64,000 nt of DNA from Armatimonadota bacterium (lineage in GTDB: Bacteria; Armatimonadota; HRBIN16): assembly GCA_040289885.1 (NCBI GenBank), contig PSLZ01000006.1, positions 37,211 to 101,210 of the forward strand, written 5' to 3'. A program made the translations under genes and the position numbers. Each line of letters begins with the position of its first letter. Position 1 is the first letter of the stretch. Shown here one piece after another: positions 561 through 63,517 of the stretch. The notes beneath the pieces are model-generated. The model was not told the DNA's origin. It did no database searches and worked only from the letters and a program-made list of their open reading frames with translations.

Positions 561-570
561 CTCCTCTCGT

Positions 571-48708: not shown

Positions 48709-50166
48709 TTACTCCACGCGCAGTTCCGTTCCGCCGAAGCGCAGGATATCTCCTACCTGTACCGCCCTTTGCTGAACGGGTTGTCCGTTGACGAAACTGC
48801 CGTTCCGGGAGCCTTCGTCGATGAGCACCCACTGCGTGCCCTGACGCTCCAGCCGCGCGTGCCGACGGCTGACGGTGGGGTCAAAATCTATCAGCACATC
48901 GCGCCCCACCTCCCTGCCGATGGTAACGACGTCGCCGCGCAGGGGGAACACCGCGCCCGCCTTCGCCCCACTCAACATCACCAGCCGCGAGGGCATCGTG
49001 CCAGGGGCAGGCGAGACAGCTGGCGGTGGCGATGCCGTAGAGGATGGTAACGCAATGGGCTGTGGCGATACACCCGACACCACACTGCAGGCGCATTGCC
49101 CCGTTACGGGGTCCTTCCGCTCACCGCAGTAGGGGCACAGGTAGTCGGGCATCGGTGGACGAGACAAGAGCTTCTCCTCTCGCTCCATTGCCTCACGCAC
49201 GAGCGAGCGTGTGGCTTTCTCGAAGAATTGCAGGCGCATGGAGCCGATCTGGATGAGGTCACTATCCTTCAGCTTCGCCTGGCGGACAGGTTGACCGTTC
49301 AGCAGGACGCCCGCCGGCGTCCCCAGGTCCTGCAAGTAGTAGCCATCTTGCATCCGGACGATTCGGGCATGTTGCGGGGCGATCTGCGGGTCGCCAAACA
49401 GGGGGATGTCGGCGTACTCGTCGCTTCCAATGAGGCACACCGGCTTGTCCACCGGGTACTCTTTGCCCTCGTTACGCCCCAGGATCATCCGCACCCATGC
49501 CGCCTTCAACGCCTCCTGCACCAGCGCGATAAAGAACCCGATGCTTGCTCCCAGCACGGGAAAACCCACCGCTCGTCCGGGCGCACCGACCTCCACGCGC
49601 CCGTCTTGTCCAGCCGCCGCCAAGTACATCGGGGCAAAGAGCAGGGTGAAAATCTGGAAGGCGATGCCTCCTAGCGCACCGCCGATGGTGCCCCCGATGG
49701 TGCTGTGCCACCAGCGTTTCACCGACCCTGTGACCACGCCCACCGCCGCGCCGATGCCCGCTCCGAAAAACATCCAGCCCAGCGTGCGCGGCACGATGTC
49801 GGTTACAAAACCTATCGGTGTCGGTTGACTGCCCGCGCCCACAGGGTTGCCCAACAGCATGCTCAGCGAGCCATACACAAGGTTGCCGAGGAACAACGCA
49901 ATCATCGCGCCGGGCAGACCGATCAGCGCAGACAACAGCCCCCTGCGCACCGCCTGAGCCGGCAGTCCTCGTGTCAGGCTGTCTGCCATGCCCAGCCAGA
50001 AGCCATAACACGCGCCCAGAATCAACGACAGCCACACGGTCTGCCGGACGGTCTCCGCCGGGTTGAGCAACATCGCCTGATGGTCGATCACTGGCTCCTG
50101 GATCACAAAGGCGATCGCCCCGCCAATGCCACCCAGCAATAAGCCCAGCAGAAGCTTGCCAAACAT
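48709..50166 (-). CDS. Polytopic membrane protein with two FHA domains and a zinc ribbon.
   Basis: N-terminal multi-TM Gly-rich domain. FHA domain 1 (...KPVCLIGSDEYADIPL...HARIVRMQDGYYLQDLGTPAGVLLNGQPV). CPYCGERKDPVTGQCACS. C-terminal FHA domain (VVTIGREVGRDVLIDFDPTVSRRHARLERQGTQWVLIDEGSRNGSFVNGQPV). Confidence 0.7.
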   Translation of the reverse strand: MFGKLLLGLLLGGIGGAIAFVIQEPVIDHQAMLLNPAETVRQTVWLSLILGACYGFWLGMADSLTRGLPAQAVRRGLLSALIGLPGAMIALFLGNLVYGSLSMLLGNPVGAGSQPTPIGFVTDIVPRTLGWMFFGAGIGAAVGVVTGSVKRWWHSTIGGTIGGALGGIAFQIFTLLFAPMYLAAAGQDGRVEVGAPGRAVGFPVLGASIGFFIALVQEALKAAWVRMILGRNEGKEYPVDKPVCLIGSDEYADIPLFGDPQIAPQHARIVRMQDGYYLQDLGTPAGVLLNGQPVRQAKLKDSDLIQIGSMRLQFFEKATRSLVREAMEREEKLLSRPPMPDYLCPYCGERKDPVTGQCACSVVSGVSPQPIALPSSTASPPPAVSPAPGTMPSRLVMLSGAKAGAVFPLRGDVVTIGREVGRDVLIDFDPTVSRRHARLERQGTQWVLIDEGSRNGSFVNGQPVQQRAVQVGDILRFGGTELRVE

Positions 50167-50169
50167 GGC

Positions 50170-51456
50170 TCACACTTCCCATCGGAAGAAGGTGGCGCCG
50201 ATCTGTATCTCGTCGCCCGGACGCAGAGCCTGTTCGGTGACACGCACCCCGTTCACCCACGTGCCGTTCGAAGAGCCTTCGTCGCGGATGACCCACTGGT
50301 CACCCTGCTTTAGCAGGCGGGCATGCCGACGGCTGACGGTGTTATCCCGGTCCAACTGCACCGTATTACCCACCTCGCGCCCGATGCTTGCCTCTGCGCC
50401 AGCGATTTCGAAGATGGTGCCGCCGTACGCGCCGCGCGCCCCTACCAGGCGCGGGTTGGTTGCTACTGCGGTCGCCGTTGGAGCCGATGCCCCTGCGGAT
50501 GCAGGAGCCACCGAGCAGGCGCAACTCCCCGTGACGGGGTCTATTGGCTGACCGCAGAAGGGGCAATGCCCTTCGGGGACCTGCACCGGAGGTTTGGCGG
50601 AGGCGGGCTTCGCTGGCTCGGGTATGGGAGGCTGTTGTGCCATTTCGATGCCCAACTTCTTCAGCGCATCGGGAATGGTCAACTGCTTGCGCTTCCAGAT
50701 GCGATATCCGCTATAGATCAGCCCTGCCAGCACCAGAAGACCGAGCAAAGTGTTCACCACAGGAAACGGACGCGACACCGGGGCGGGGGTCGGCTTCACA
50801 GGTTGCGTGGCGGATGTGGGCGTGAGGGGAGCGGTCTCCAGCACCGGCGCACCGCTGGAGATGACCATCGTCAGGGTTACAACTGGGTTGGCACGCTCTG
50901 CCTTGATCTCCGCCTCCTGCGAGGCAGTGAGGTTGTTGCCGTAGTTCACCAACACGCTGACCTTACCCAGTTTCACCCGCTCCAGCGACACGATGCCGTT
51001 CTGCGACGGCTCTAGCAGGGCAGTGTGGATGGTATTGTTGGCATCGGTGAGCATCACAAACGCCGCGGCGATGGGCTTGTCCTCTGGCGTCTGCAGTCTC
51101 ACCTGCACGCGCATGGCATACTGGAACGCATCAGGCGTTACGGTGACGGTGGTGTCGTTGGGCTTGAGGGTAATCAGCGCCAGGTTGCCGTATTTGGTAT
51201 CGTACACACCCACTCGCGCGCCTTCCAGCGTTTTATCGGCGGTGTCGGCAAATCGCTTCTTCAGGGAGCCGATGTCCAGCTCCACTTTCCCCGCCACGCT
51301 CTCGTTGGGCGGCAAGAAGACGGTTCGTCCGTTCGCCGACTCCAGCCACACCAGATATTTGCCTTCGCTGGGTACGTTCACCGTGACCTTGTCGGGCAAA
51401 GACCACGCCGCGGTGGTGATGAAGAACAGGCAGACCAACCATGCATATCGCCTCAT
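50170..51456 (-). CDS. Secreted/membrane protein with a zinc ribbon and a C-terminal FHA domain, paralog of 48709-50166.
   Basis: RBS aggaggaggg then MRRYAWLVCLFFITTAAWS (signal). TM LLGLLVLAGLIYSGY. HCPFCGQPIDPVTGSCACS. FHA domain EASIGREVGNTVQLDRDNTVSRRHARLLKQGDQWVIRDEGSSNGTWVNG. Confidence 0.7.
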   Translation of the reverse strand: MRRYAWLVCLFFITTAAWSLPDKVTVNVPSEGKYLVWLESANGRTVFLPPNESVAGKVELDIGSLKKRFADTADKTLEGARVGVYDTKYGNLALITLKPNDTTVTVTPDAFQYAMRVQVRLQTPEDKPIAAAFVMLTDANNTIHTALLEPSQNGIVSLERVKLGKVSVLVNYGNNLTASQEAEIKAERANPVVTLTMVISSGAPVLETAPLTPTSATQPVKPTPAPVSRPFPVVNTLLGLLVLAGLIYSGYRIWKRKQLTIPDALKKLGIEMAQQPPIPEPAKPASAKPPVQVPEGHCPFCGQPIDPVTGSCACSVAPASAGASAPTATAVATNPRLVGARGAYGGTIFEIAGAEASIGREVGNTVQLDRDNTVSRRHARLLKQGDQWVIRDEGSSNGTWVNGVRVTEQALRPGDEIQIGATFFRWEV

Positions 51457-51467
51457 GTTTCCCTCCT

Positions 51468-51521
51468 CCTGTGCCAAGCTATGCCTCTAACATTCCTGTG
51501 CCAAGCTATGCCTCTAACATT
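51468..51521. repeat. Perfect tandem duplication of a 27-nt unit (cctgtgccaagctatgcctctaacatt x2).
   Basis: It spans the junction between the nnr stop codon (inside unit 2) and the RBS of the FHA gene. Confidence 0.8.
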
Positions 51522-53058
51522 GTTGTATCGCCTTCGGCAGGTAGCGAATGATGTCACCCGCGATCAAGCCCGCCTGACCGGTCTCCTCTACCGCGAGGTC
51601 GCCCGCCAACCCATGTAGATATACGCCAGCCACCGCGCCCTGTTCGCCGTCCAGACCCTGCGCCAGCAGTCCAGCGATGGTACCTGTCAGGGCATCCCCG
51701 CTACCGCCGGTTGCCATCCCCGCGTTGCCGGTGGGGTTCACCCAGATTCTGCCCTCTGGAGTGGCGACTACCGTGCGCGCGCCCTTCAGCACCACCACCG
51801 CACCGAACCGATCCGCCGCGCAACGCGCCATCTCTAGCCGGTTCGCCTGCACGTCTGCCGTACTGGTGTTCATCAGTCGTGCCATCTCGCCCGGATGCGG
51901 GGTCAGCACCAGTGGCGTCTGCTGTAAGGGAAGGATGTCCGGTTCCTGGGCGATGCAGTTCAGTGCGTCGGCGTCGATCACGCACGGCACCCGCGCCTCC
52001 TTGAGCAGTTCCCGTAGAGCCTCGCGAGCAGGCAGGCGGGTGCTCCAGCCCGGCCCGATAGCCAGCACGTTCGCGCGCTCCAGAAGCGGCTTCAATCGGC
52101 TGACGGATTGCCTGCACAGACACCCCTCTGGTGCCTCGGGCAGAGGATGTACCATCGCTTCGCGCAGGCTACCTGCCGCGGCGGTGTAGATGCTATGCGG
52201 AACCGCCACGGAACAGAGCCCCGCTCCTACCCGCAGGGCGGATTCCGCCGCCATCATCGGTGCGCCTGCCAGCCCTACCGAACCACCTATCACCAGCACA
52301 TGCCCGAAGTGCCCTTTGTGCGCATGGGGCGGGCGGGCAGGTAGCCACCGGCGTATCTGCTCCCGTGTTATCAGACGCCGGGCAATGTTCGCGCGTTCCA
52401 CCTCCACCGCAGGGATGCCGATGTCTGCCACCACCAGTTCACCCGCGTACTCCGCGCCGGGATGAACCGCCAGCCCGACCTTCATCGCGCCGAAGGTGAT
52501 CGTGAGCGTGGCACGGATGGCACGACCGCACACCGCGCCGGTATCGGCGTCGATGCCCGAAGGCACGTCTACCGCCACCACCGGCACCGGACAACTCTGG
52601 AAGAATCCGATGACCTCCCCGATAAGGCCTCGCACTTCGCCCGTGACGCCGATGCCCAACAGGGCGTCCACGACCAGGTCCCAATCGGCTCTGCCCCAGA
52701 GGTGAGCGAGGTCTTCCGCGTTCTGCAGGGGACGAACGATGCCCAGCTTCTGTGCGATGTGCAGATTGGTTCGGGCGTCGCCGGTCACCTTTTCGGGGTC
52801 GCCAGCCAGCGCCACCAGCACCTCTGCACCCCGTTGCATGGCGTGACGCGCCACCACCATGCCGTCGCCGCCGTTGTTGCCCGTGCCGCACAGCACCAGC
52901 ACCCGCTTGCCCTGCCACCCGCCAAACCGCTGTTCGGCGTGATTGACCACCTGCAGGCCCGCGTTTTCCATCAGGAGCAAGCCGGGAATGCCGTACTGCT
53001 CGATGGCGATGCGGTCCATCTGGCGCATTTGCTCGGCGGTTACCAGCACCGGTAGCAT
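51514..53058 (-). CDS. nnr: Bifunctional NAD(P)H-hydrate epimerase / ADP-dependent dehydratase.
   Basis: YjeF N-terminus (LVLCGTGNNGGDGMVVARH) plus a C-terminal carbohydrate-kinase domain (HKGHFGHVLVIGGS..., ...LKGARTVVA). Confidence 0.85.
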   Translation of the reverse strand: MLPVLVTAEQMRQMDRIAIEQYGIPGLLLMENAGLQVVNHAEQRFGGWQGKRVLVLCGTGNNGGDGMVVARHAMQRGAEVLVALAGDPEKVTGDARTNLHIAQKLGIVRPLQNAEDLAHLWGRADWDLVVDALLGIGVTGEVRGLIGEVIGFFQSCPVPVVAVDVPSGIDADTGAVCGRAIRATLTITFGAMKVGLAVHPGAEYAGELVVADIGIPAVEVERANIARRLITREQIRRWLPARPPHAHKGHFGHVLVIGGSVGLAGAPMMAAESALRVGAGLCSVAVPHSIYTAAAGSLREAMVHPLPEAPEGCLCRQSVSRLKPLLERANVLAIGPGWSTRLPAREALRELLKEARVPCVIDADALNCIAQEPDILPLQQTPLVLTPHPGEMARLMNTSTADVQANRLEMARCAADRFGAVVVLKGARTVVATPEGRIWVNPTGNAGMATGGSGDALTGTIAGLLAQGLDGEQGAVAGVYLHGLAGDLAVEETGQAGLIAGDIIRYLPKAIQQC

Positions 53059-53061
53059 CGC

Positions 53062-53796
53062 TTACCCCTCCTGGCGCCGGGCGATGATGGTTCGCACCCG
53101 CTCGAGGTCTTCTTCGGTGTCCACGCCGATAGATGTCTGCTCCACGCGCACCATGCGGATGCGGTAGCCGTTCTCCAGCACACGCAGTTGTTCCAGCATC
53201 TCCATCTGCTCGAGTGGGGTCGGCTCCCACGAGGCGTACTGCAGAAGGAACTCGCGCCGGTAGGCGTAGATGCCCAGATGCTTATACACGATGGCGGGGG
53301 CAGATGGGTCACGCGGATAGGGAATGCGCGCGCGTGAAAAGTAGAGGGCATTGCCCACTTTGTCGACCACCACCTTCACCGCCGTGGGTTTGTCTTTCTC
53401 CTCCTCAGTGGCAGGGCACATCAGACTGCCCATGGGGAGCGAAGGGTCTTCCATCAGCGGGCGCACCACGGCATCGATGTTCTCTGGCGGCATCAGCGGT
53501 TCGTCGCCCTGGATGTTGACGATAACCTCTGCGTTCAGTGATTGCGCGACCTCTGCCAGTCGCTCGGTGCCGGAGCGGTGTCGCGGCGACGTAAGCACGG
53601 CGATGCCGCCAAAACCGCGTACCACCTCCGCGATTTGTTCATCGGGGGTGGCAACCAACACCTCGCTAAGTGTCTTTGCCTGTTTGGCATTGTGCCACAC
53701 CCACCATATCATCGGCTTGCCCACGATATCCAGCAGTGGCTTGTTGGGTAGACGAACCGCCGCCAGGCGCGCGGGAATGATGCCGACAACCTCCAT
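53062..53796 (-). CDS. kdsB: 3-deoxy-manno-octulosonate cytidylyltransferase (CMP-Kdo synthetase).
   Basis: RBS ggaggg then MEVVGIIPARLAAVRLPNKPLLDIVGKPMI... and IVNIQGDEPL. Confidence 0.8.
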   Translation of the reverse strand: MEVVGIIPARLAAVRLPNKPLLDIVGKPMIWWVWHNAKQAKTLSEVLVATPDEQIAEVVRGFGGIAVLTSPRHRSGTERLAEVAQSLNAEVIVNIQGDEPLMPPENIDAVVRPLMEDPSLPMGSLMCPATEEEKDKPTAVKVVVDKVGNALYFSRARIPYPRDPSAPAIVYKHLGIYAYRREFLLQYASWEPTPLEQMEMLEQLRVLENGYRIRMVRVEQTSIGVDTEEDLERVRTIIARRQEG

Positions 53797-53954
53797 GTGC
53801 CTGTGCCTCCCTCCTGCGTCTGGGTATATGCTTCTCACAGCAATCATTCGCCAGACAGCACACGCTCACCTTGCGAGGCACGTAGGTCGCTTCTCTGCGG
53901 GGGATAGTGCACAGAAAAAGCGGGAACTTTTTGAACAGCGAAAATCGTCTTATT

Positions 53955-53986
53955 ATTTGAAAGTTATCAAATTATGGAAATATCAT
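53955..53986 (+). promoter_or_regulatory. AT-rich promoter/operator for the arsR-merA operon.
   Basis: TTGAAA-18 nt-TATCAT is sigma70-like. It overlaps an imperfect palindrome atttgaaagttatcaaat, a candidate ArsR/SmtB operator. It lies 15 nt upstream of the RBS ggaggtg. Confidence 0.4.
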
Positions 53987-54000
53987 ATGGAGGTGCAAAG

Positions 54001-54453
54001 ATGAGCAAGATGAAAGCACAAAACCAGCGAAGCCGTCAAATCCCGCTTTGCGAAATCTACAACCCGGATACTCGCAGGGCTGAGCGGGTTCGCGCCCTTT
54101 TGCCTGATGAAGAAAGTCTTCACGACACAGCACGTGTGCTCAAAGCCTGTGCCGATCCGGCACGTGTGAAAATCCTCTACGCGCTAGGGGAGTCGGAGCT
54201 ATGCGTGTGTGAGCTAGCGCATCTATTGGGGCTTTCTATGCCCACAGTTTCTTATCACTTGCGGATACTAGACCAGGCGAAACTCATCGAGTATCGCAAG
54301 CAAGGCAGACTGGTCTTTTATCGCTTGCGGGATGAGTGCCTGACCCAGCGCGTGCAGCAACTAGTGGAGCTTTTTCGGAAAGACAGATCACCAGAGCAAC
54401 CCCAAATACTCCAGGAATCTCAAATCACTGAGCAGCCCATCTTGAGGAGGTAG
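54001..54453 (+). CDS. ArsR/SmtB-family metalloregulator.
   Basis: ARVKILYALGESELCVCELAHLLGLSMPTVSYHLRILDQAKLIEYRKQGRLVFYRL is a winged helix-turn-helix with a CVC metal site. Confidence 0.8.
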   Translation: MSKMKAQNQRSRQIPLCEIYNPDTRRAERVRALLPDEESLHDTARVLKACADPARVKILYALGESELCVCELAHLLGLSMPTVSYHLRILDQAKLIEYRKQGRLVFYRLRDECLTQRVQQLVELFRKDRSPEQPQILQESQITEQPILRR

Positions 54454-54460
54454 CACAAAG

Positions 54461-56494
54461 ATGTTCAAGAGGCTGTTTTCCCTTCGCCGGAGCGTCTGGT
54501 CCGGAACATGGGCAGGATTGGGTGCAGTAGGGTCGGCTCTGCTCGCGTCGAGCTGCTGCACTCTGCCCATGTTATTGGGTCTGTTAGGGGCAGGGAGTGT
54601 AAGCATCAGCAACACTCTACTTCCGTACCGTCCTTACTTCATCGGGCCGACCCTTGTTTTGCTATCGGTCGCTTTCTACCTGACCTATCGTAAACCTCGA
54701 AAGACGCCGAACCCGGGGCAGGCAGCGGACGACAGTTGCGGTTGCGAGTCCGTGGAAGTTTGTTGCACGAGGAGTACAGGGGTTACTCGCCTCAGCAGAG
54801 CCGTTCTCTGGACAGCGACCGCTGTGGTGCTGGCTTCGCTCCTGTATCCCTATTACCCCTATCTTAAGAAGGGCTGGCAACCTACCATCAAGAAGCCAAT
54901 AAGTTCCGCTGCCTCGCGGCACACCCTCTCATTTCGCATTGAGGGCATGGATTGTGCCGCCTGCGCTTCTCATATCGAGCAAGCTCTGCGGCAGGTGCCG
55001 GGTGTGGAGAACGCCCAGGTGGACTTTGAATCGGGCATCGCATCAGTGGAATGGAGTGCTAGACCTCAGTCTCGTGTGATACCGGCAGAAAAAGAAACGG
55101 AGTTCGACCTGATGGTGATCGGGGGCGGTTCGGCAGGGTTCGAGGCTGCCATCAAAGCGGCAGAACTGGGCGCTCGAGTTGCTCTTGTTGAGGCGGGGAC
55201 TATTGGAGGTACCTGCGTGAACATCGGTTGTGTACCCTCCAAGACCCTGATCAAGGCGGCCGAAGTCTGCTATCGCGCGGCTTATCCGCACTTCGAAGGC
55301 TTGCCCATTTGCCCGACCCCAACCGACTGGCCGCGCGTGGTGCAACAGAAAGACGCTCTGGTAACCGCCCTTCGAGAGGATAAATATGTCCATGTGCTGG
55401 ATATTTATCCGGCCATCCGTTTGCTTCGTGGCAGGGCGCGCCTGACCAGCGAACGCACTGTCGAGGTCGACGGTGTTGCCTACCATCCTGACAAGATTAT
55501 CCTAGCAACCGGTTCCCATCCTTGGGTGCCACCGATCCCCGGCTTGAACGAGGCGGGGTATCTAGATAGCACTGATGTACTCAGCCTATCCACCCTGCCT
55601 GAATCCATGATAGTTGTTGGTGGAGGGGCTATCGGGCTAGAGCTGGAGCAACTTCTACACCGCTTTGGAGTGCAGGTGACAATCTTGGAGGGGCTTCCCT
55701 TCGTGGCGGGATTCACAGAACCAGAGATTAGCGAAGCGTTGACGCTTTATTTAGAAGAGGAAGGCATTCGCATCTGCACTAACGTGCGGATTCAACACGT
55801 CGAGCGCAAAGAGGGACGCTATTACGTCAAGACCCTCAGAGACGGTGAAACAGAGGTGTGTACCGCCGAGCAACTGCTAGTTGCAACGGGGCGACGCCCT
55901 ACTACCACAGGGCTCGGGCTGGAGAACGCCGGGGTGCAGATAGGGCAACGGGGGGAGATCCTCGTTAACGAATACCTGCAAACGAACAATCCCCATATCT
56001 ACGCCGCGGGCGATTGTATCGGCGACCCGATGTATGTTTATGTGGCGGCATACGCGGGTGGTTTAGCCGCTGAAAACGCCTTAACTGGAGCAGGGCGTGT
56101 ATATGACCTGAGCGCATTGCCTCACGTGGTTTTCACCGACCCTCAGGTTGCCAGCGTAGGGCTGACGGAAAGACAAGCGCAAGACAAGGGCTATCGGGTC
56201 AAGACTTCGACCCTACCTCTCAAGAATGTACCGCGCGCCATTGTGTCGCGGGATACCCGCGGGCTAATCAAACTGGTTGCCGAGGCGGACACGGAACGCC
56301 TTCTCGGGGCACACATACTCAGCGTTGAAGCAGGCGAGGTTGTGCAGGAAGCGGTGCTAGCAGTTCGCTTCCGTCTGAGCCTCAAGGACATCGTGGAGAC
56401 GTTCCATCCCTATCTGACTATGGTGGAAGGTATCAAACTGGCAGCCCTCACTTTCGAGAAAGATGTGTCCCGACTGTCTTGCTGTGCTACATAG
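54461..56494 (+). CDS. merA: Mercuric reductase fused to an N-terminal MerT-like membrane transporter domain and an HMA (MerP/NmerA-like) domain.
   Basis: Residues 1-140 carry three TM helices, with a vicinal Cys pair in TM1 (SSCCTLPMLLGLL) and a Cys cluster in the TM2-TM3 loop (DDSCGCESVEVCC), the MerT arrangement. Then an HMA domain LSFRIEGMDCAACASHIEQAL. Then FAD/NAD oxidoreductase with redox-active GGTCVNIGCVPSK and the C-terminal Cys pair ...SCCAT. Confidence 0.8.
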   Translation: MFKRLFSLRRSVWSGTWAGLGAVGSALLASSCCTLPMLLGLLGAGSVSISNTLLPYRPYFIGPTLVLLSVAFYLTYRKPRKTPNPGQAADDSCGCESVEVCCTRSTGVTRLSRAVLWTATAVVLASLLYPYYPYLKKGWQPTIKKPISSAASRHTLSFRIEGMDCAACASHIEQALRQVPGVENAQVDFESGIASVEWSARPQSRVIPAEKETEFDLMVIGGGSAGFEAAIKAAELGARVALVEAGTIGGTCVNIGCVPSKTLIKAAEVCYRAAYPHFEGLPICPTPTDWPRVVQQKDALVTALREDKYVHVLDIYPAIRLLRGRARLTSERTVEVDGVAYHPDKIILATGSHPWVPPIPGLNEAGYLDSTDVLSLSTLPESMIVVGGGAIGLELEQLLHRFGVQVTILEGLPFVAGFTEPEISEALTLYLEEEGIRICTNVRIQHVERKEGRYYVKTLRDGETEVCTAEQLLVATGRRPTTTGLGLENAGVQIGQRGEILVNEYLQTNNPHIYAAGDCIGDPMYVYVAAYAGGLAAENALTGAGRVYDLSALPHVVFTDPQVASVGLTERQAQDKGYRVKTSTLPLKNVPRAIVSRDTRGLIKLVAEADTERLLGAHILSVEAGEVVQEAVLAVRFRLSLKDIVETFHPYLTMVEGIKLAALTFEKDVSRLSCCAT

Positions 56495-56613: not shown

Positions 56614-58086
56614 CTACAGACTGCGGATAAACCGCTCCGCTTCTTTCTCGTAGGTGCGGAAGGGGTTGCGCAGTTCCAGCTGCCGCCCCTTGTCCACGTA
56701 GACCATATCCCAGTCCACGATATACGCCCGGTTGCGCGAGGCAAGCAGGTGCTGAATCGCTCGGCTACGCCCATAGGCGCGCGTGTTGTCTGGCGGGTTG
56801 ATGGTGGCGTTCTGGATGTCCTCGTCGGTGACGAGGCGTTGAATCAGCCCCGCCTCCACCAGCCCGTAGTATAGCCCGCGTGACGGGTCGGTGTTGTGGT
56901 ACTCCATGTCGAGGCTGAACATGATGTCGTCGTGCCAGCTCAGCCCCTCTTGCTGACGGAAGGTATCCAGCAGTTTGCGCTTCGCCACCCAGTCTAGGCG
57001 GTCATCCAGGCTCATGGGGTCCAGCTCCAGCGCATCCAGCACATATTCCCACTCACGCAGGGTCCAGTCGGTATCCGCATCGCGCCCGGCGAGGTGCTCC
57101 TTGGCGGTCTGCAGGTAGATACGCTGGAGGTCTACCGCGCGGATGGTGGAGCCGTCGTGCCGGCGCACCACCCATTTCCATTTCGGGTCGCGGCTCACGG
57201 AGCGCAGAGCCTCCAGCGGGTCGGCAAGGCGCACATCGGGCTTAATGAGATTGCGCTCCAGCAGGTCAAGCACCAGGCTGGTGGTGCCGATCTTGAGTGC
57301 AGTAGCGTATTCGCTCATGTTGCCCTCGCCGAACAGGATGTGCAGGCGATGCATGCTGTTATACGAATAGTAGCTGTCCCACTTGGGGTTGATGATGGCG
57401 CGGTTAAAGCGCACGCGCGAGGAGATGGTCTTCACGATGTGGTCAGCGCGTTGGGAGAGCTGGAAATCCACCGTAGGGTCGATCTCCACCGCGTAGAACC
57501 GGCTGACCCACACGTAGTCCATCTCGTGCTCACCGAGGTCCATGATGTTGTTAGAGAAGTCGTTGTAGTTGAGGCGATGTCCGCCCACGCGCCCCGACCC
57601 GGCGAAAATCTGTCGCGTGACCAGAAACGGCAGAAGGTTATACAGGGAGTCCAGGAAGTAGCGGTCTTCGATGCTGACCAGGTAGTTCTCGTGACAGCCG
57701 AAGGTGTGCCCGCCGAAGTGGTCTACCGCATTGTTATAGAACGAGACCCTGTCCTGCCATCCCAAAGCCTGCAGGGCTTCCTGCAGGATGCGTTGACCGG
57801 CTTTCTCATGCGCCACGATGTCGGCGAGGCGCGAGCACTCGGGGGTGGCGTACTCCTCGTGGTCTCCCACAGCGTCGATGTACAGTCGCCCCCCATTGAC
57901 CAGGAAGCCACCGCCGCGTGCTGGCTCGAAGGCAAAATCCCGGCTGTGCAGGTCAATCAGCCCCCGGCGCAGGCGGTAGAACACGCAGTCCTTGACCTTT
58001 TCCACCACCCGCTCGGGTCTGCCCACGCTCTCGTCTCGCACGAGGCATCCGAACTCTGTTTCAATACCGAAGATACGGTTTTCCAT
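56614..58086 (-). CDS. pafA: Pup--protein ligase PafA.
   Basis: MENRIFGIETEFG...NGGRLYIDAVGDHEEYATPECSRLADIVAHEKAG... is the PafA/Dop carboxylate-amine ligase fold. It is shorter than the dop paralog and lacks the WDY...DARGF Dop loop. It sits in the canonical position downstream of prcA. Confidence 0.75.
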   Translation of the reverse strand: MENRIFGIETEFGCLVRDESVGRPERVVEKVKDCVFYRLRRGLIDLHSRDFAFEPARGGGFLVNGGRLYIDAVGDHEEYATPECSRLADIVAHEKAGQRILQEALQALGWQDRVSFYNNAVDHFGGHTFGCHENYLVSIEDRYFLDSLYNLLPFLVTRQIFAGSGRVGGHRLNYNDFSNNIMDLGEHEMDYVWVSRFYAVEIDPTVDFQLSQRADHIVKTISSRVRFNRAIINPKWDSYYSYNSMHRLHILFGEGNMSEYATALKIGTTSLVLDLLERNLIKPDVRLADPLEALRSVSRDPKWKWVVRRHDGSTIRAVDLQRIYLQTAKEHLAGRDADTDWTLREWEYVLDALELDPMSLDDRLDWVAKRKLLDTFRQQEGLSWHDDIMFSLDMEYHNTDPSRGLYYGLVEAGLIQRLVTDEDIQNATINPPDNTRAYGRSRAIQHLLASRNRAYIVDWDMVYVDKGRQLELRNPFRTYEKEAERFIRSL

Positions 58087-58165
58087 AGACCTGCACCTCC
58101 GCGATAGCGATTTCCGAATAGGTTTCGTCAAGTATGACGTCGCGAGCCGCCGCCCCCACCTCCAT

Positions 58166-58185
58166 CCTCCCCGCGGGCGGGGAGG
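58166..58185. other. Perfect 9-bp GC hairpin in the prcA-pafA spacer.
   Basis: cctccccgc gg gcggggagg. It lies between the prcA stop (58237) and the pafA start (58086). Confidence 0.5.
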
Positions 58186-58236
58186 AGGTTTTGGGCTCGG
58201 TATCTGCCTTGCCCTCCGGCTCCGTCGTTGGGCGCA

Positions 58237-59007
58237 TCATACTGGCAGAGCGGGACGGACTTCCTCTTCCTTCAGCAAACGGAACTTGCGCTCCCGCTTG
58301 GTGAAGCGGTCCAGAATCGCCGCCTCGACCTGCAGTTCCTCCATCTGTTCTTTCAGGAAGGCTACGATGCGTTCCTCGCTCAGGCTGTGCGCTCCCTCTT
58401 CCTCTATCTGCGCCTCGGTTGCCCACAATCTGCCAACCGCCCACGCACGCAGGGCACGCTGTATCGCCGTCTGTAGGTCGGGCATGCCTTCGGCATCTTC
58501 GGGAACGAGCTGGCGCACCATCTGCTCTTCGGCTTCGGGAGTGCCTGCCAATGCCGCTGCCCAGTTGAGCGACACGAACTCGCCGTCGTAATTCAGCGTG
58601 TAGAACAGGTCCTCTTCGGGCTTTCTGCCCATCTCGGCGAACAGCGCACGCACCACAAACGGCGCATTCAGCACGTCCCCAAACGCCCGCTTCACCCCCG
58701 GGCTGATAGCGAAACCGACCACCCGCTGGATGGTCACATCATCGGGACTGCGGGCGTAACCCTCCTGATGCGCGAAATCGATCGCCCCCACGCGGATGAT
58801 CTCCAGGTCGCTCTGGTTGCCCAGCCCCGCGAACATCAGCCGGTCGTAAATCTCGAATATCTTGCGCTGGGTGCGGCGGAGCGTTAGAAGCAGTACCCCG
58901 CCGTCGTAGCTGATGCCGGCGACGGGACTACCGTCTCTGAGCCGCTCCTCGATATATTCCGTGCGATGGCGCACGCTTTCGTTGAAATCGTAAGGGGTAT
59001 AAACCAT
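58237..59007 (-). CDS. prcA: Proteasome alpha subunit.
   Basis: MVYTPYDFNESVRHRTEYIEERLRDGSPVAGISYDGGVLLLTLRR... Confidence 0.85.
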   Translation of the reverse strand: MVYTPYDFNESVRHRTEYIEERLRDGSPVAGISYDGGVLLLTLRRTQRKIFEIYDRLMFAGLGNQSDLEIIRVGAIDFAHQEGYARSPDDVTIQRVVGFAISPGVKRAFGDVLNAPFVVRALFAEMGRKPEEDLFYTLNYDGEFVSLNWAAALAGTPEAEEQMVRQLVPEDAEGMPDLQTAIQRALRAWAVGRLWATEAQIEEEGAHSLSEERIVAFLKEQMEELQVEAAILDRFTKRERKFRLLKEEEVRPALPV

Positions 59008-59112
59008 TCTCCGGTTCTTCCTCCCGACCTCTGCCCCGTCTCTTCCGCCTAAAGCGGAAGGAAGCCCCTTGCTTGCGGTAGGAACGGGGGAGGTGCTGTT
59101 GTCAAGGGTGGT

Positions 59113-59895
59113 TTACAGTTTCAGGTTCTTTCTGATTTCAGCCAGTTGCTCTTCGCTGATTTCCAATATTCCATCGGCGGTAACGGCTCGCGCGATGGGC
59201 AGTACCTTCTCGATGCCCGCCGTTGCCGAGTCGAGGTCGGCGGCGATGTCCAGCAACAGCAAAGACTCGCGCAGAGCCTCTTCTATCGTCATCTCGTGGA
59301 AGGGTCCCTTCGTCTTCAGGATATAGTCGAACACGCCCCGGATACGCTCGGAGCCAGAGCCAGCCGCGCCGAACTCCACGCTCTCGAAGCGCGCGCCCAT
59401 GCCGTCGTAGAAGAAGATGCGCCCTTCGCCGCGCTCGAGGTCATAAGCGGAGACCACTGGGATGAACATGCCGATCCCTTGCAGAGCCATGCTGAGGTTG
59501 CCCGCCAACGCGCGCGATACCTCCGCCAGTTTGCCCTCCAGGCTCATCTCCTGCAGTTGGGTGCGTGCATAGTATTTGAACGAGTGCTGGAGGTAACGCA
59601 CAATCTCCATCGCCCGCGCGTAGGAGCCTGCGATGGCGATCAGCGTGTAGTCGTCCAGGGGCAGAATCTTCTCCGCGCGGTCGTACATAATGGCGTTGGC
59701 TGAGGTGGCGCGCCGGTCACCGACGTTGAGCACCCCCTCCCGGTACTTCAGCGCGATGACGGTGGTACCATGCGTTTCGCGCAAAGATACCTGAGCGTGT
59801 TGCGCGGGAACAGGTTCCGGTTCCCGCCACAGCCCGCGCGCCCGCAACAGCGTCATGAAGTCGCCGCTGGTGTTAGCGTTCAGAGGTTCACCCAC
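59113..59895 (-). CDS. prcB: Proteasome beta subunit with propeptide.
   Basis: GTG start. The propeptide ends ...RETHG|TTVIALKYREGVLNVGDRRATS, with the catalytic Thr. Confidence 0.85.
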   Translation of the reverse strand: MGEPLNANTSGDFMTLLRARGLWREPEPVPAQHAQVSLRETHGTTVIALKYREGVLNVGDRRATSANAIMYDRAEKILPLDDYTLIAIAGSYARAMEIVRYLQHSFKYYARTQLQEMSLEGKLAEVSRALAGNLSMALQGIGMFIPVVSAYDLERGEGRIFFYDGMGARFESVEFGAAGSGSERIRGVFDYILKTKGPFHEMTIEEALRESLLLLDIAADLDSATAGIEKVLPIARAVTADGILEISEEQLAEIRKNLKL

Positions 59896-59898
59896 GGT

Positions 59899-60087
59899 CT
59901 ACTCTCCACTACGCTGGCGATATCGTCGCGCCTGGTCGGGGTCCACCCGCTTCATCCGCTTCAGCAGGTCGTTGACGTCCGGTCGGCTGACCTTCGGCGT
60001 GGTGGGTCCCCCTTCCTCGCCGCCCTTGCGGGTGATCGGGTCGGAAGGAATGGTTCGGGTTAATCGGTCATCTGCTTGCCACTGCAT
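59899..60087 (-). CDS. pup: Prokaryotic ubiquitin-like protein Pup, an atypical variant ending -SGE.
   Basis: 62 aa, low-complexity: MQWQADDRLTRTIPSDPITRKGGEEGGPTTPKVSRPDVNDLLKRMKRVDPDQARRYRQRSGE. It has a DDLL..M helix-like segment and a C-terminal Glu, and sits exactly between dop and prcB. Its first 28 nt overlap the dop 3' end. Confidence 0.6.
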   Translation of the reverse strand: MQWQADDRLTRTIPSDPITRKGGEEGGPTTPKVSRPDVNDLLKRMKRVDPDQARRYRQRSGE

Positions 60088-61631
60088 GGCTGGTTTCCTC
60101 CTTCTGCTTCATGCTTGCGCGAGGCGTGCAGTTCGCGAAAGGTGTTGACGAACTCGGTGAGATTGTGCACCTTCGCTAGTTTCTGGATCTTTTGCGGCAC
60201 GCGCTGGGTCACCCACTCGCGCAGGTCTAAGGTAACCACCTGCTCGCCGAAGGTGAGTATCACCCGGCTCCAGGTGATACCGCTGATCGCCTGCGCGTAG
60301 CGCTCCACCAGCGTGCCCCGCACCCACGCCCGGGTGCTGGTCGGCGGATGAAGCATCGCGCGCTCGATATCTTTATCTGTTACTACGCGCCTCACCGCTC
60401 CCATTTGTTCCAGACCCGCGAACAGCCCGTCTTGCGGGTCTATACTATGATACGCCAAATCCAGGCTTTGCACAAGAGGTTCTTTCCATGTGACGCCCTC
60501 GCTTTGGATGAACTGCTCCAGCAAGAGCCGCTTGGCGACCCAGTCCAGGCTATCCGCCAACGCTTGCGGGTCGCGCTCGAGGGCGTCCAAAGTGCTCTCC
60601 CACGCCAGCAACAGCCACTGCGTTTCGGTGTTAGTGTGTGCAAACCTCTGCTGGGCTTCGCGCAGGTACAGACGCTGTATCTCGACAGCAGGCACTCTGC
60701 GTCCATCCTCTAGCTCCACTTCCCACTTCCAGTCGGGGTCGCGCGAGAGCCGGCGGATGGTTTCCACCGGGTTGCGAACGGCGATGCCCGGTTGCCAGCC
60801 CGTTTCGATTATCTCTGTCACAAGGCGGGTTGCACCCACCTTCAGTGCGGTGGCGTACTCGCTCATGTTGGCGTCGCCGCAGATCACGTGTAGTCTACGG
60901 TAGCGTGAAGGGGTGGCATGAGGTTCGTCGCGCGTGTTGATAATCGGTCGCTGGTAGAGGGTGTCCACGCTCGCTTCCACCGAGAAGAAGTCCGCCCGTT
61001 GGGAGATCTGGTAGGGCACATCGCCGAAAACGCCGGGGGTTTCCACCCCCACCTTGCCTGCCCCCGCATACAGGATGCGCGTGACGAAGAAGGGCATCAT
61101 GCCGCGGATGATCTGCTCGAAGGGCACACTGCGGCGCATCAGGTAGCCCTCATGACAGCCGTAGCTGGCGCCGTGGAAATCGGTGTTGTTCTTGTAGATA
61201 TGCACCTTCAGCCCTGTGCGCTTCATGTACTCTTGCGCGCAGTGCCAGACGATGCGCTCGCCTGCACGGTCATGTGCCACCAGCTCGCGCAGGCTGACGC
61301 ATTCGGGGGTGGAGTACTCAGGATGCCCGTGGTCGTTGTAGAGGCGCGCGCCGTTGGGTAGCACACGGTCACTACGGGTCTCTCCCGACAGGTTCGCGGT
61401 GGAGGTTCCTTCAGCGTCGTACTGAGCGTCCACGGGGTCGGTCTGCAGGTACTCCACGTGGAAGCCGCGAGCGTCCTTGCGCGGGTCCTCCCGCCGATAG
61501 TCCCAAGAGGTGGCAAAGGCAGAGGCGGAGTAGCCGCGCACCACCTCTGCCGCTTCGAACACCAGCTCTGAGGGGTTTTTGCCCTCGATATACAGTCCGT
61601 ATTCCGTCTCCAGCCCAACCAGACGCTGCAT
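60060..61631 (-). CDS. dop: Depupylase/deamidase Dop.
   Basis: MQRLVGLETEYG. A Dop-specific loop SWDYRREDPRKDARGFHVEY matches, from my recollection of the Mtb sequence, Dop WDYEVESPLRDARGF. LPNGARLYNDHGHPEYSTPEC and YKNNTDFHGASYGCHEGYLM. Confidence 0.8.
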   Translation of the reverse strand: MQRLVGLETEYGLYIEGKNPSELVFEAAEVVRGYSASAFATSWDYRREDPRKDARGFHVEYLQTDPVDAQYDAEGTSTANLSGETRSDRVLPNGARLYNDHGHPEYSTPECVSLRELVAHDRAGERIVWHCAQEYMKRTGLKVHIYKNNTDFHGASYGCHEGYLMRRSVPFEQIIRGMMPFFVTRILYAGAGKVGVETPGVFGDVPYQISQRADFFSVEASVDTLYQRPIINTRDEPHATPSRYRRLHVICGDANMSEYATALKVGATRLVTEIIETGWQPGIAVRNPVETIRRLSRDPDWKWEVELEDGRRVPAVEIQRLYLREAQQRFAHTNTETQWLLLAWESTLDALERDPQALADSLDWVAKRLLLEQFIQSEGVTWKEPLVQSLDLAYHSIDPQDGLFAGLEQMGAVRRVVTDKDIERAMLHPPTSTRAWVRGTLVERYAQAISGITWSRVILTFGEQVVTLDLREWVTQRVPQKIQKLAKVHNLTEFVNTFRELHASRKHEAEGGNQPCSGKQMTD

Positions 61632-61641
61632 GGGTTACCGC

Positions 61642-63342
61642 CTAGACGATGTTGCGTCGGCTTGCAGATTGCCGTTCGCGGTCCTGCGGGCGAATGGGGC
61701 GTACGTCCGCCACGTTGTCCGGCTCGTAGTCCAGCAGTTTCAGCCAGTCCTCCTGCGAGTCGGACTTGGGGAAGATTTCGCTCTCCTTGTACTCCGTGCG
61801 GATAGCCATCTGCAGGTCCGCTAGCGAGATACCGCTGTCCTCGGCGCACTCGATGGCGCGTTTGATGGCGTAGTCCTTCGCCCGGTCCACTACCGACTTC
61901 AGCAGGGCGCCGCTGACCAGGTCGCGCCAGTAAAGCGTCTCCACCGAGCCGTTGCGCAGATACACCTGCACGAACTCGGTTTCGGGATGCTTGCGCCACA
62001 GGTATTCGATGGCGCCCTCCAGCAGTGCCTCGCGCGCCGCCTCTTCCGAGCCGTGTTCGTGCACTGTCGCCGGGTCCAGCGGGATATTGGGATGCAGGTA
62101 GATCGCCAGAATGTCCCGCGATGCCCGCTTGTCCGGACGTGCCACCTTCACTTTGCGGTCGATGCGTCCGGGGCGCAGTACGGCGGGGTCGATGTAGTCA
62201 GGGCGGTTGGAGGTGAGCATCACCACCACGTTCTCCAGCGACACCAGCCCGTCCATCTCGGCGCAGAATTGCGGCACCACCGTGTTCGAGATGTGCGTGA
62301 ACCTGCCCGAGTTACGCACGCGCAGGATGGACTCGGCTTCGTCGATGAAGATGAAGACCAGATGCCCTTCGCGTGCCTTTTCGCGGGCGGCGGCGAAGAT
62401 TTCACGCACCATGCGCTCGCTCTCGCCCAGCCACATGTTCAATATCTTGGGACCGCTGATGTACATGAAGTACTCGCGCACATCGCGGTTGAGTTGCTTG
62501 CGGTATTCGTGGGTCAGATTGTAAGCGGTGGCTTTGCCGATCAGCGTCTTCCCACAGCCGGGGGGACCGTAGAGCAGGATGCCCTTGATCGGCTGTTTCT
62601 CGAACTTGCGGAACAGCTCGGGATGGAGCAGTGGCAGTTCGATAGTATCACGGATGACTCGGATGGCTTCTTCCTGCCCGCCGATGGCGCTCCAGGGGAT
62701 TTCGGGAACCTCTTCGAAGTAGTAGTCGCGTGCCTCACGCTGGGCGAAGTGCTCCAGAGCTACTTTCAAGTTCGGCTCCATGCGCACCTCATCGCCCGGC
62801 TTGATGGTCACGTCCGCCAGTTCGTGTCCGCGCAGGACCAGCCGTCCCGACATGCCCTGGGGGTCGGATGCCACGCGCAATCGCCCGTCCTCCAGGACCT
62901 CCTGCACTTTGACGATAGGTCCCTGGGGATGATACCCTAGGTCACCCACTACGGCGAAAGCCTCGTTGATGCGCACGCGTGTGCCCACCTTAAGCGTGCT
63001 GGCGTCCATTTGGGGATCGATGTTCGCATAGTACTCGGTGTCGCCAACTGCGATCATGGCAATGCCTTCGGCGGGCGAGCCTAAATACACGCCGATACGG
63101 TTCGCCGGAGAGGTGAGCTTTTCATAGACCTGCTCGTACTCCTGCAGTGCCTTTTGCGCCTCTTGAAACTGTTTCTCGTCCACCTCCAGCTGATGGCGTA
63201 ACAACAGCAGGTAGTTGAGGAGCCGAGCGTCCTGCGGTGGACGAGCGCGGAGGATTTCGTCAAGGAGCGTTAGCGCACGCAGGGAGGTCTCCGGCGGCTG
63301 GAACTCTGCGTATTTGTCTTCGTCATAGCGGTCGCGCTTCAT
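61642..63342 (-). CDS. arc: Proteasome-associated AAA ATPase ARC/Mpa.
   Basis: N-terminal coiled coil, OB-fold region, Walker A GPPGCGKTLIGKA, ...IFIDEAE... The C-terminus ends ...RERQSASRRNIV, with no GQYL. Confidence 0.85.
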   Translation of the reverse strand: MKRDRYDEDKYAEFQPPETSLRALTLLDEILRARPPQDARLLNYLLLLRHQLEVDEKQFQEAQKALQEYEQVYEKLTSPANRIGVYLGSPAEGIAMIAVGDTEYYANIDPQMDASTLKVGTRVRINEAFAVVGDLGYHPQGPIVKVQEVLEDGRLRVASDPQGMSGRLVLRGHELADVTIKPGDEVRMEPNLKVALEHFAQREARDYYFEEVPEIPWSAIGGQEEAIRVIRDTIELPLLHPELFRKFEKQPIKGILLYGPPGCGKTLIGKATAYNLTHEYRKQLNRDVREYFMYISGPKILNMWLGESERMVREIFAAAREKAREGHLVFIFIDEAESILRVRNSGRFTHISNTVVPQFCAEMDGLVSLENVVVMLTSNRPDYIDPAVLRPGRIDRKVKVARPDKRASRDILAIYLHPNIPLDPATVHEHGSEEAAREALLEGAIEYLWRKHPETEFVQVYLRNGSVETLYWRDLVSGALLKSVVDRAKDYAIKRAIECAEDSGISLADLQMAIRTEYKESEIFPKSDSQEDWLKLLDYEPDNVADVRPIRPQDRERQSASRRNIV

Positions 63343-63517
63343 CTGTCATCCTCCCCTGCCACCCGACGCGAGTCGATAGCCGTCAGGTGCGTATTGATTA
63401 TACCCGAACGGTACATCTTTCGGAAGCCCTTTTTGCCCGCAGAAAACAGAGAATCGCTAAATGACTGGAAAAATTGGCGTGTGCCGGCTCGGCATCCGCC
63501 TCGCCCTCCAGTTTCTC

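Follow-up and report, generated by a model that had tools for sequence, protein, structure and literature searches.

In the canonical mercury-resistance operon, merR-merT-merP-merA (Tn501/Tn21), uptake of Hg(II) is followed by its reduction, with the metal passing along a relay of cysteines. MerT is described as a tri-spanning protein with C76 and C82 at the cytoplasmic face (PMC5500634, PMC5715351), and MerA (structures 1zk7 and 5x1y) combines an N-terminal NmerA domain with a catalytic core that carries a CxxxxC motif and a C-terminal CC pair. Several variants of this scheme are on record. In the curated MerTP family (NF033556), MerT is joined to an HMA domain, and about half of the best MerT-profile matches in our searches had this MerT-HMA architecture. 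In MerB-MerA (MerBA) fusions, which recur in several taxa, NmerA is replaced on one polypeptide by another mer protein, the soluble cytoplasmic enzyme MerB (PMC11227200). ArsR-type regulators were counted in 22 of 272 mer operons (Boyd & Barkay 2012, PMC3466566), with further precedent elsewhere (PMC11672702), and in Streptomyces lividans and Saccharolobus solfataricus a winged-helix ArsR repressor gene heads the operon. Hence ArsR control of mer operons and MerTP fusions are both already known. Our search of the literature for natural MerT-MerA or MerT-MerP fusions returned only MerB-MerA fusions and 'merTP' used as an operon string.

Here we analyzed a window of 64,000 nucleotides from an Armatimonadota contig (PSLZ01000006.1), which contains a locus with the uptake-then-reduction logic and the cysteine relay elements of the canonical operon. 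Unlike that operon, it has no MerR and no separate MerP, its ArsR-type regulator gene is codirectional with the structural genes, and the two structural genes that the cassette once had are now fused. We think it probable that the locus is an arsR-merTP-merA cassette in which merTP and merA became fused through a 341-bp deletion, most likely leaving the operon impaired. The cassette is small and was probably acquired horizontally; its GC content is 0.49–0.59, compared to 0.60–0.67 in the flanks. The features discussed below are as follows.

53955..53972, no strand assigned: candidate ArsR operator, palindrome ATTTGAAAGTTATCAAAT, an ATTTGA-N6-TCAAAT inverted repeat
53957..53986, plus strand: sigma-70-like promoter match, TTGAAA, 18-nt spacer, TATCAT (10/12 positions), overlapping the palindrome
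54001..54453, plus strand: ArsR/SmtB-family regulator, 150 aa, CadC-like (NF033788, PF01022, Shine-Dalgarno sequence, structure match)
54444..54450, plus strand: ribosome-binding site GAGGAGG of the fused ORF, overlapping the arsR stop codon (anti-SD duplex –12.8 kcal/mol)
54461..54871, plus strand: MerT domain, residues 1–137 (PF02411, 19-protein alignment, AlphaFold helices, comparison with sister contig L002)
54872..55067, plus strand: lysine-rich linker (KKGWQPTIKKPISSAASR), then truncated merTP HMA (HMA profile coverage, collinearity with L002)
55067..55068, plus strand: deletion junction (blastn against L002, junction inspection)
55068..56494, plus strand: remnant of the MerA inter-domain linker and the complete catalytic core, residues 204–677 (TIGR02053, solved structures)
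55142..55156, plus strand: FAD-binding helix with polymorphic radical substitutions (119 homologues, contig comparison)
55646..55648, plus strand: G396E, affecting the small residue at +4 of the NADPH-binding fingerprint GxGxxGxxxG/A (homologue column)

The fused ORF (54461–56494, plus strand) encodes 677 aa, and each feature that a sequence-only reading had described in it was recovered at its coordinates. From the N-terminus, a MerT domain is followed by a lysine-rich linker, an HMA domain with GMDCAACA and the MerA core. The cysteine map comprises C32-C33 within the first hydrophobic helix, four loop cysteines (C93/C95/C101/C102) between helices 2 and 3, the motif G162-MDCAACA, the redox-active pair C252/C257 (coded at 55214–55231) and the C-terminal pair C674/C675 (56480–56485). 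Together with the Pfam and NCBIfam matches, this map bears out the earlier claim that a MerT-like N-terminus, GMDCAACA and a MerA core share one ORF.

PF02411 (MerT) matches residues 21–132 at 36.2 bits, against a Pfam cut-off of 32.9; the intact MerTP of the sister contig, described below, scores 41.4 bits. The suggested alignment with MerT sequences, done here with 19 MerT proteins, identifies the N-terminal domain as a genuine homologue: C32, C33, P36, Y56-R57-P58-Y59, W117 and P130 are invariant, C95 is nearly so, and C93, C101 and C102 are additional. Helices were placed at about 19–44 (containing C32-C33), 60–76 and 115–135, and AlphaFold gives helices at 2–41, 47–76 and 110–136. The MerA core matches TIGR02053 over residues 215–676 at 572.5 bits (NCBIfam cut-off 454.45) and the Pfam pyridine-nucleotide-disulphide oxidoreductase domains over residues 215–661, with MerA structures 5x1y and 1zk7 as the nearest solved structures. 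Like Tn501/Tn21 MerA, it has a complete core, CxxxxC and the C-terminal CC. It differs from that protein in being attached to a membrane protein, in having neither NmerA nor its own start, and in carrying G396E and A228E.

Between these two parts, the metal-binding domain proved to be truncated. The Pfam HMA match spans residues 158–202, with the PF00403 motif GMxCxxC present as G162-MDCAAC, and covers profile positions 2–46 of 62; coverage is 2–61 of 62 for both the sister MerTP (P0142) and the sister MerA. What is left, residues 154–201, comprises strand 1, GMDCAAC, helix 1 and strands 2 and 3; without helix 2 and strand 4, the beta-alpha-beta-beta-alpha-beta fold is incomplete. AlphaFold assigns this segment pLDDT values of 84–94, which largely reflect the alignment.

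A sister contig, L002, explains how this ORF came about. L002 is 97% identical to the window and has the same gene order, with two separate genes in place of the fusion. Its merTP (P0142) encodes a 236-aa fusion of MerT with a complete HMA domain, and its merA is a normal gene with its own GGAGG, ATG and NmerA domain. P0142 has the three-helix MerT, linker and complete HMA of NF033556 and covers 4–182 of the 186 profile positions, although at 104.6 bits it falls below the equivalog cut-off of 180 and is a distant relative. Relative to that family, the HMA of the window is cut after strand 3 and runs into MerA, and the linker is unusually basic. In blastn comparisons, L002 1–5434 aligns with window 49607–55067 at 97.05% identity and L002 5776–6544 with window 55068–55836 at 98.8% identity; the 341 bp of L002 between these matches (5435–5775) are missing from the window.

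Up to 55067 the DNA runs collinear with L002 merTP, and the Q203 codon (CAG) takes its first base from merTP codon 203 and its other two from merA codon 81 (bases 2–3). The deletion took out merTP codons 203–236, the signals for merA translation and codons 1–81 of merA, i.e. the final third of the HMA of merTP, GGAGG-N-ATG and all of NmerA. NmerA and the merA start signals are accordingly missing from the window. The reading frame was restored across the junction by chance, and inspection of 55067/55068 revealed neither a flanking repeat nor microhomology. The two-gene arrangement of L002 is the ancestral state, and the fused ORF arose in one strain by a recent 341-base deletion that joined neighbouring mercury-resistance genes. 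Because the final third of the merTP HMA was lost, the metal-binding domain of the fusion is a remnant of that HMA, not NmerA.

The ancestral arrangement has two HMA-coding segments ∼340 bp apart, and coverage, judged from contig names, is ∼9–11×. Both invite the thought that the fusion is an assembly artefact, a collapse between the two HMA-coding regions. We give this next to no credence. The longest repeat common to both regions is ≤9 nt, the junction is blunt with no shared sequence, and SPAdes-style ENA contigs (three assemblies), a Logan contig and an NCBI MAG all have this identical junction. These observations led us to reject assembly collapse. Four further contigs (L001, L003–L005), which come from four separate assemblies and are 99.94–99.97% identical to the window, carry the deletion, as does a protein of the NCBI Armatimonadota MAG. 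Within the population sampled, the deletion allele appears to be fixed.

The fusion is confined to this single near-clonal population and is not found in the 97%-identical sister. No recurrence in independent lineages with complete domains, as would be expected of an evolved fusion family, was seen. An ORF scan of 160 other MerT loci revealed none (0/160) with MerT and MerA in one ORF. Nor was a MerT-MerA fusion among the matches listed in searches with the N-terminal domain, with profiles and against 1.84 billion representatives, a weak negative because the query's own protein was also unlisted (word-index limits, 50% clustering); the ORF scan is the firmer test of rarity. The closest MerA homologues, 119 of 119, are proteins of ∼554 aa with NmerA and their own translation start, and without MerT.

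A further question is where translation of the fused product begins. The NCBI pipeline annotated the MAG protein (MER3473169.1) as 515 aa with first residues MDCAACA, i.e. it chose M163 as the start, and a weak GGAG lies 9 nt upstream of M218. If either start were used, MerA would be made separately in the cytoplasm, and the long ORF would be an annotation curiosity. We regard this as very improbable. Genuine starts in this genome have GGAGG, with SD duplex energies of –10.6 to –12.8 kcal/mol, and the true merA start in L002 (–11.5 kcal/mol) fits this pattern, but its ribosome-binding site and ATG are deleted here. M163 has essentially no SD (–1.5 kcal/mol) and falls inside strand 1/loop of the HMA. 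At M218 (–6.1 kcal/mol), initiation would cost the FAD-binding fold part of its first strand. Separate translation of MerA was rejected on the basis of these poor SD sequences and the loss of the true start signals with the deleted segment, and the search for an internal start with its own RBS, which the sequence-only reading had named as a refuting condition, yielded no strong site within the window. One practical consequence is that the NCBI start call conceals the entire MerT part.

The product would be a chimera of MerT, two thirds of an HMA domain and the MerA core, translated solely from the merT start. This raises the issue of topology. In the MerT-HMA proteins analyzed, the mean number of K+R is 6–6.5 in loop 2, compared to 1.0 in the linker after helix 3. 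Because this family-wide bias puts loop 2 in the cytoplasm, the C-terminus of MerT is predicted to lie outside, where an NADPH/FAD enzyme would be misplaced. The MerA core would then be drawn to the periplasmic side, away from FAD/NADPH, or else the third helix would fail to insert; either outcome would most likely leave the operon impaired. In this lineage, the linker after helix 3 has five K/R, the extreme of 73 MerT-HMA proteins, and helix 3 is only marginally hydrophobic. Owing to these two features, the C-terminal part could stay cytoplasmic, which would remove the topology objection. Because the intact MerTP of the sister contig has this linker too, we rejected a scenario in which the basic linker arose after the deletion as a means of holding MerA inside. 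When a separate MerP-like ORF was used as a proxy for the compartment of the HMA, one was found at 5 of 27 fused loci versus 25 of 66 unfused loci, a weak trend in the expected direction.

Substitutions in the cofactor-binding motifs are also relevant. G396, which is glycine in L002, is replaced by glutamate in the window; among the 119 homologues this column contains A (72), G (42) and T (5). In the FAD-binding helix, A228E (codon 55142–55144, base difference at 55143) affects a column that is A in 115 of 119 homologues (97%), and other contigs of the same population carry K232E (codon 55154–55156, base difference at 55154), where the homologues have K (115/119) or R (4/119). With G396E and A228E, the FAD and NADPH dinucleotide-binding fingerprints of the window MerA are not intact. 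Judged from the homologue columns, these changes resemble what relaxed selection on a defunct reductase would produce. Comparison of the window with L002 gives dN/dS values of 0.21 for the MerT part and 0.27 for the MerA part, no higher than in the flanking genes yjeF (0.22) and arsR (0.26); the overall ranges are 0.21–0.27 for the mer genes and 0.04–0.26 for the flanks, based on too few changes to decide. Decay is thus suggested by a handful of substitutions and not by dN/dS, and G396E may predate or postdate the deletion. The window MerT also differs from that of L002 by L63P in helix 2. NmerA itself is reportedly dispensable except under thiol depletion, a finding ascribed to Ledwidge et al. 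in 2005.

Taken at face value, the fused ORF would represent a new way to channel Hg(II) from transporter to reductase. One could picture a working membrane-tethered mercuric reductase, in which MerT imports Hg(II) and the cytoplasmic cysteines pass the metal to the C-terminal pair of the attached MerA, although we judge this unlikely. It is similarly doubtful that MerA stays cytoplasmic by virtue of the third helix or the lysine-rich linker, with the deletion tolerated or even favoured. Several observations do count against impairment: the fusion is in frame, every catalytic cysteine is kept, and the ribosome-binding site is strong, with no strong internal start to compete. The allele is present in several assemblies, dN/dS is not raised, and the unusually basic linker and marginally hydrophobic helix 3 are compatible with a cytoplasmic MerA. 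MerB-MerA provides a natural precedent for N-terminal replacement of NmerA (PMC11227200). However, MerB is soluble and its fusions recur, whereas here the partner is a membrane transporter with a predicted extracytoplasmic C-terminus, and only one near-clonal population has the fusion.

Other evidence argues against a working fusion. The separate genes of the sister strain point to a deletion in one lineage, the HMA is truncated, and the family-level charge bias puts the C-terminus outside. G396E replaces the canonical small residue in the NADPH fingerprint, with A228E and K232E in the FAD helix, and a second example was found neither in the 160 loci nor among the matches listed. That the deletion accidentally yielded a working membrane-anchored reductase, the basic linker keeping everything past helix 2 or 3 cytoplasmic, we likewise judge unlikely; if true, it would mean that a natural one-polypeptide uptake-and-reduction machine had been caught at its origin. 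A damaged operon is the more likely interpretation than a new molecular design. The proposal that transport and reduction had evolved onto one polypeptide gives way to the sister strain with its separate merTP and merA: the evidence instead points to an ordinary arsR-merTP-merA cassette with a deletion allele at the level of the strain. Fusions seen in single genomes should not, on this example, be taken as designs. The allele nonetheless provides a natural construct with which to probe the topology of the MerT C-terminus and tethered hand-off from MerT to MerA.

The regulatory half of the cassette is of an ordinary kind and probably intact. As the sequence-only reading had it, the regulator is of the ArsR/SmtB rather than the MerR type: arsR matches NF033788 at 94.1 bits (cut-off 55) and PF01022 at 63.7 bits, and encodes a winged helix-turn-helix protein. 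The gene begins with the ATG of position 54001, which has a GGAGG upstream (–10.6 kcal/mol), and not with that of position 53974. The nearest solved structure is CadC (1u2w, E 4e-19). C17, C68 and C70 of the window ArsR align with C7, C58 and C60 of pI258 CadC, which form its alpha3N site, whereas CadC C11 has no counterpart, leaving a three-cysteine site. This triad is kept in 15/15 ArsR proteins adjoining merT. The repressor, with its C17/C68/C70 site, would bind the palindrome over the promoter and be released by Hg(II).

The palindrome ATTTGAAAGTTATCAAAT (extended form TTATTTGAAAG|TTATCAAATTA) also held up as a candidate operator, and from its sequence and position its assignment to ArsR is credible. 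It is the sole match in the 64 kb (0.01 expected by chance), is unchanged in L002 and overlaps the promoter-like site. The promoter assignment is shaky and the transcription start uncertain, because the –10 element ends 2 nt before the GGAGG at 53989–53993. The palindrome resembles those found upstream of merT-adjacent ArsR-type genes in other phyla; the half-site spacing at other ArsR-merT loci is 8, compared to 6 in the window (ATTTGA/TCAAAT). In several phyla, ArsR regulators of the CadC-like, three-cysteine clade adjoin merT or merTP and share a conserved palindromic candidate operator, which would make them a defined target for studies of Hg(II) sensing by ArsR-family proteins, the chemistry of which has been described as unresolved (PMC11672702). 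Near the starts of merT-adjacent ArsR-type genes (14 loci), perfect palindromes of the form TTTNA-N6/8-TN'AAA are enriched ∼170-fold.

Between kdsB and a Pup-ligase-like gene, the window carries a cassette of two co-directional genes:

53062-53847, minus strand: kdsB, left neighbour of the cassette
54001 (likely ATG start, GGAGG upstream): first gene, ArsR/SmtB regulator, 150 aa
54461-56494, co-directional with the ArsR gene: second gene, MerT-HMA-MerA ORF, 677 aa
54866-54919: linker KKGWQPTIKKPISSAASR after MerT helix 3, 5 K/R
56614-58131, minus strand: Pup-ligase-like gene, right neighbour of the cassette

The 677-aa ORF is genuine, and its domains were assigned correctly from the sequence alone. 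Pfam recognises MerT (residues 21-132; 36.2 bits against a cut-off of 32.9) followed by HMA (residues 158-202), and the MerA core occupies residues 215-676 (NCBIfam TIGR02053, 572.5 bits; cut-off 454.45). Alignment with 19 MerT proteins shows that the family-invariant residues C32, C33, P36, YRPY and W117 are kept, and every cysteine named in the sequence-only reading is present. The HMA domain is there but not whole. Its match ends at profile position 46 of 62, and hence the last helix and strand are absent, leaving a remnant with three of the four strands and one of the two helices. AlphaFold models this remnant confidently (pLDDT 84-94), which mostly mirrors the supplied alignment. GC content drops from 0.60-0.67 in the flanks to 0.49-0.59 in the cassette, as would fit acquisition by horizontal transfer. 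No further merA, merT, merR or arsR homologues were found in the 64-kb window.

A sister contig (L002) matches the window in gene order (FHA, yjeF, kdsB, arsR) and encodes P0142, a 236-aa MerTP whose MerT part is identical to that of the query and which ends in a complete HMA domain. A separate gene starting MIHRVRVALRVEGMTCDGCARHV follows with a 4-nt overlap and encodes a normal NmerA-MerA. L002 positions 1-5434 correspond to window 49607-55067 (97.05% identity) and 5776-6544 to window 55068-55836 (98.8%); the 341 bp of L002 between these blocks are missing from the window. On the merTP side, the lost DNA encodes HMA helix 2, strand 4 and the tail. On the merA side, it includes the ribosome-binding site GGAGG (-11.5 kcal/mol), the ATG and codons 1-81, that is, the whole NmerA and most of the linker. 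In L002 merTP and merA are read in different frames; as 341 leaves a remainder of 2 on division by 3, the deletion joins them in frame, with codon Q203 a hybrid of the two genes.

We considered assembly collapse as the cause of the fusion. This is very unlikely, since the junction shows neither repeat nor microhomology, the longest stretch shared by the two HMA-coding regions is at most 9 nt, and the identical blunt junction recurs in four other contigs, drawn from ENA and Logan assemblies, whose identity to the window is 99.94-99.97%. Both HMA domains of L002 span profile positions 2-61 of 62, and P0142 matches positions 4-182 of 186 in NF033556 'MerTP', a curated MerT-HMA family. Given that NmerA is found in every MerA homologue and that MerT-HMA is a curated family, the two-gene state is ancestral and the window deletion derived. 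That the fused ORF arose by deletion is close to certain.

Among the 120 best full-length matches, a MerT domain occurs only in the query's own cluster; the rest are MerA proteins of about 554 aa in which NmerA precedes MerA, none more than about 69% identical. The query's 90% cluster has four sequences, including a near-identical 677-aa variant, P0142 and an NCBI protein of 515 aa (MER3473169.1, Armatimonadota MAG) whose start at M163 reflects a start-call choice. Running P0142 against genome and metagenome contig collections identified 160 loci with relatives. When their ORFs were screened by phmmer, 94 loci proved to have a MerT-like ORF, and in none of the 160 were MerT and the MerA core joined in one ORF, by motif or by phmmer. 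Representative and profile searches turned up numerous MerT-HMA fusions, each about 200 aa long, and, among the matches listed, no MerT-MerA fusion; the query's own protein was likewise unlisted, so this result is weighted lightly. No natural MerT-MerA fusion was found in the literature; MerB-MerA fusions are known (PMC11227200). The 'triple fusion', read earlier as placing transport and reduction on one polypeptide, is a one-lineage, deletion-derived chimera of the known operon type arsR-merTP-merA.

The sequence-only reading had raised the alternative that MerA is translated separately from an internal start. Genuine starts in this genome carry GGAGG (-10.6 to -12.8 kcal/mol), compared to -1.5 for M163 and -6.1 for M218. 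Both candidates are poor, and thus MerA, if made at all, is part of the 677-aa chain. The 515-aa NCBI record MER3473169.1 (P0140, equivalent to window 54947-56494) starts at M163, inside the HMA motif, which hides the MerT part and makes the fusion invisible there.

Published descriptions of MerT give it three membrane spans and a second cysteine pair that faces the cytoplasm (PMC5500634, PMC5715351), an arrangement that puts the C-terminus outside. Among the analysed MerT and MerT-HMA proteins, the loop between helices 2 and 3 has 6-6.5 K+R on average, versus 0.4-1.0 after helix 3, and linker K/R is two or fewer in 70 of 73 MerT-HMA proteins (0-1 in most). Together these suggest that the fused HMA is a MerP equivalent on the outer face, in which case the MerA core that follows would be separated by the membrane from its cofactors FAD and NADPH. 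The linker of this lineage, also found in the intact sister protein, is the extreme of the 73, and helix 3 is marginally hydrophobic only. The basic linker leaves the side of the membrane of the fused HMA in question here, and a cytoplasmic C-terminus is possible in such an outlier.

Judged against L002 and 119 homologues, G396E replaces the small residue at +4 of the NADPH fingerprint GxGxxGxxxG/A, a column of A, G or T only, and A228E lies in the FAD-binding helix, in a column that is 97% Ala. The window also has L63P in MerT helix 2 relative to L002. The deletion population is near-clonal (15 single-base differences over about 19 kb), and two of the 15, A228E and K232E, lie 11 nt apart in the FAD helix. 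A228E is absent from L001, and K232E, in a column wholly Lys or Arg, is found in L003-L005 (all contigs with the same deletion). The pattern looks like relaxed constraint, though the numbers are small; dN/dS values are unremarkable (MerA part 0.27, MerT part 0.21, flanking genes 0.04-0.26). The chimera is probably impaired. We lean, with some reserve, towards a true impairment of reductase function, and consider it unlikely that the chimera works as a tethered reductase.

The regulator assignment holds: the protein matches NF033788 (94.1 bits; cut-off 55) and PF01022 (63.7 bits), and gene callers on identical contigs also pick ATG 54001. A palindrome at 53955-53972 occurs once in 64 kb (0.01 expected by chance) and is overlapped by a promoter-like match (TTGAAA, 18-nt spacer, TATCAT), whose -10 element abuts the ribosome-binding site, making the transcription start uncertain. 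The proposed operator and ArsR-type control are supported, but the regulation is of a known kind: in the Boyd and Barkay survey, 22 of 272 mer operons begin with a regulator of ArsR type (PMC3466566). Such regulators repress mer genes in Saccharolobus solfataricus and Streptomyces lividans (PMC3466566); for the Streptomyces protein, the metal chemistry has been called unresolved (PMC11672702).

Across the 95 loci that have a MerT-like ORF (L002 and the 94 from the scan), an ArsR-type gene lies within 2.5 kb of merT/merTP in 15, mostly directly upstream, and a MerR-type gene is nearby in 38. An N-terminal-arm cysteine and a helix 3 CxC are common to all 15 ArsR proteins. The nearest solved structure to the window ArsR is CadC (1u2w, E 4e-19), whose C7, C58 and C60 align with C17, C68 and C70; the predicted site would have three thiolates and could suit Hg(II). 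Related palindromes (TATTTnAG-N6-CTnAAATA) closely precede the ArsR-type genes of loci from KSB1, Bacteroidota and others; loci with an upstream palindrome are L007, L013, L016, L019, L024, L028, L031, L105, L107 and L120. Perfect TTTNA-N6/8-TN'AAA palindromes number 2.7 per kb near ArsR-type starts versus 0.016 elsewhere in the same loci, an enrichment of about 170-fold upstream of the clade's arsR-type genes. Half-sites are spaced by 8 in the other ArsR-merT loci, whereas those of the window are spaced by 6. This CadC-like three-cysteine clade adjoins merT/merTP in several phyla and could form a defined subfamily of ArsR proteins that sense Hg(II), for which no dedicated family model exists.

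In other Armatimonadota the order is arsR-merA-merTP, as in L006 (Abditibacterium MAG) and L011 (Armatimonadota MAG, with a second merA), and their upstream inverted repeats differ and are nested, e.g. CGTTGAATGATTCAACG. MerTP fusions are very common in metagenomes (protein-search matches P0143-P0399) and often labelled 'copper chaperone CopZ' by the source. P0157, P0169, P0173 and P0176 (420-471 aa) have an additional N-terminal domain of about 190 aa, and P0152 and P0325 carry PF19803 or PF18423.

Other features of the window are:

5471-5797, plus strand: ORF of about 109 aa with an HMA-like G[MIL]xCxxC motif, possibly by chance
48709-51477, minus strand: neighbouring genes for two FHA-domain proteins (485 aa; about 428 aa)
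56614-63000, minus strand: UBact-proteasome gene cluster
58237-59007 and 59113-59895, minus strand: proteasome subunits of this cluster
59899-60087, minus strand: UBact protein, 62 aa (PF20513)
63516-63617: 36-bp tandem repeat, 2.8 copies, 95% matches, adjoining a 64-aa ORF call

The UBact cluster also holds two Pup-ligase-like genes and an AAA ATPase, and fits a non-actinobacterial (Armatimonadota) origin. Both FHA proteins have hydrophobic N-terminal parts and CPxCG...CxC zinc-ribbon-like motifs ahead of their FHA domains.
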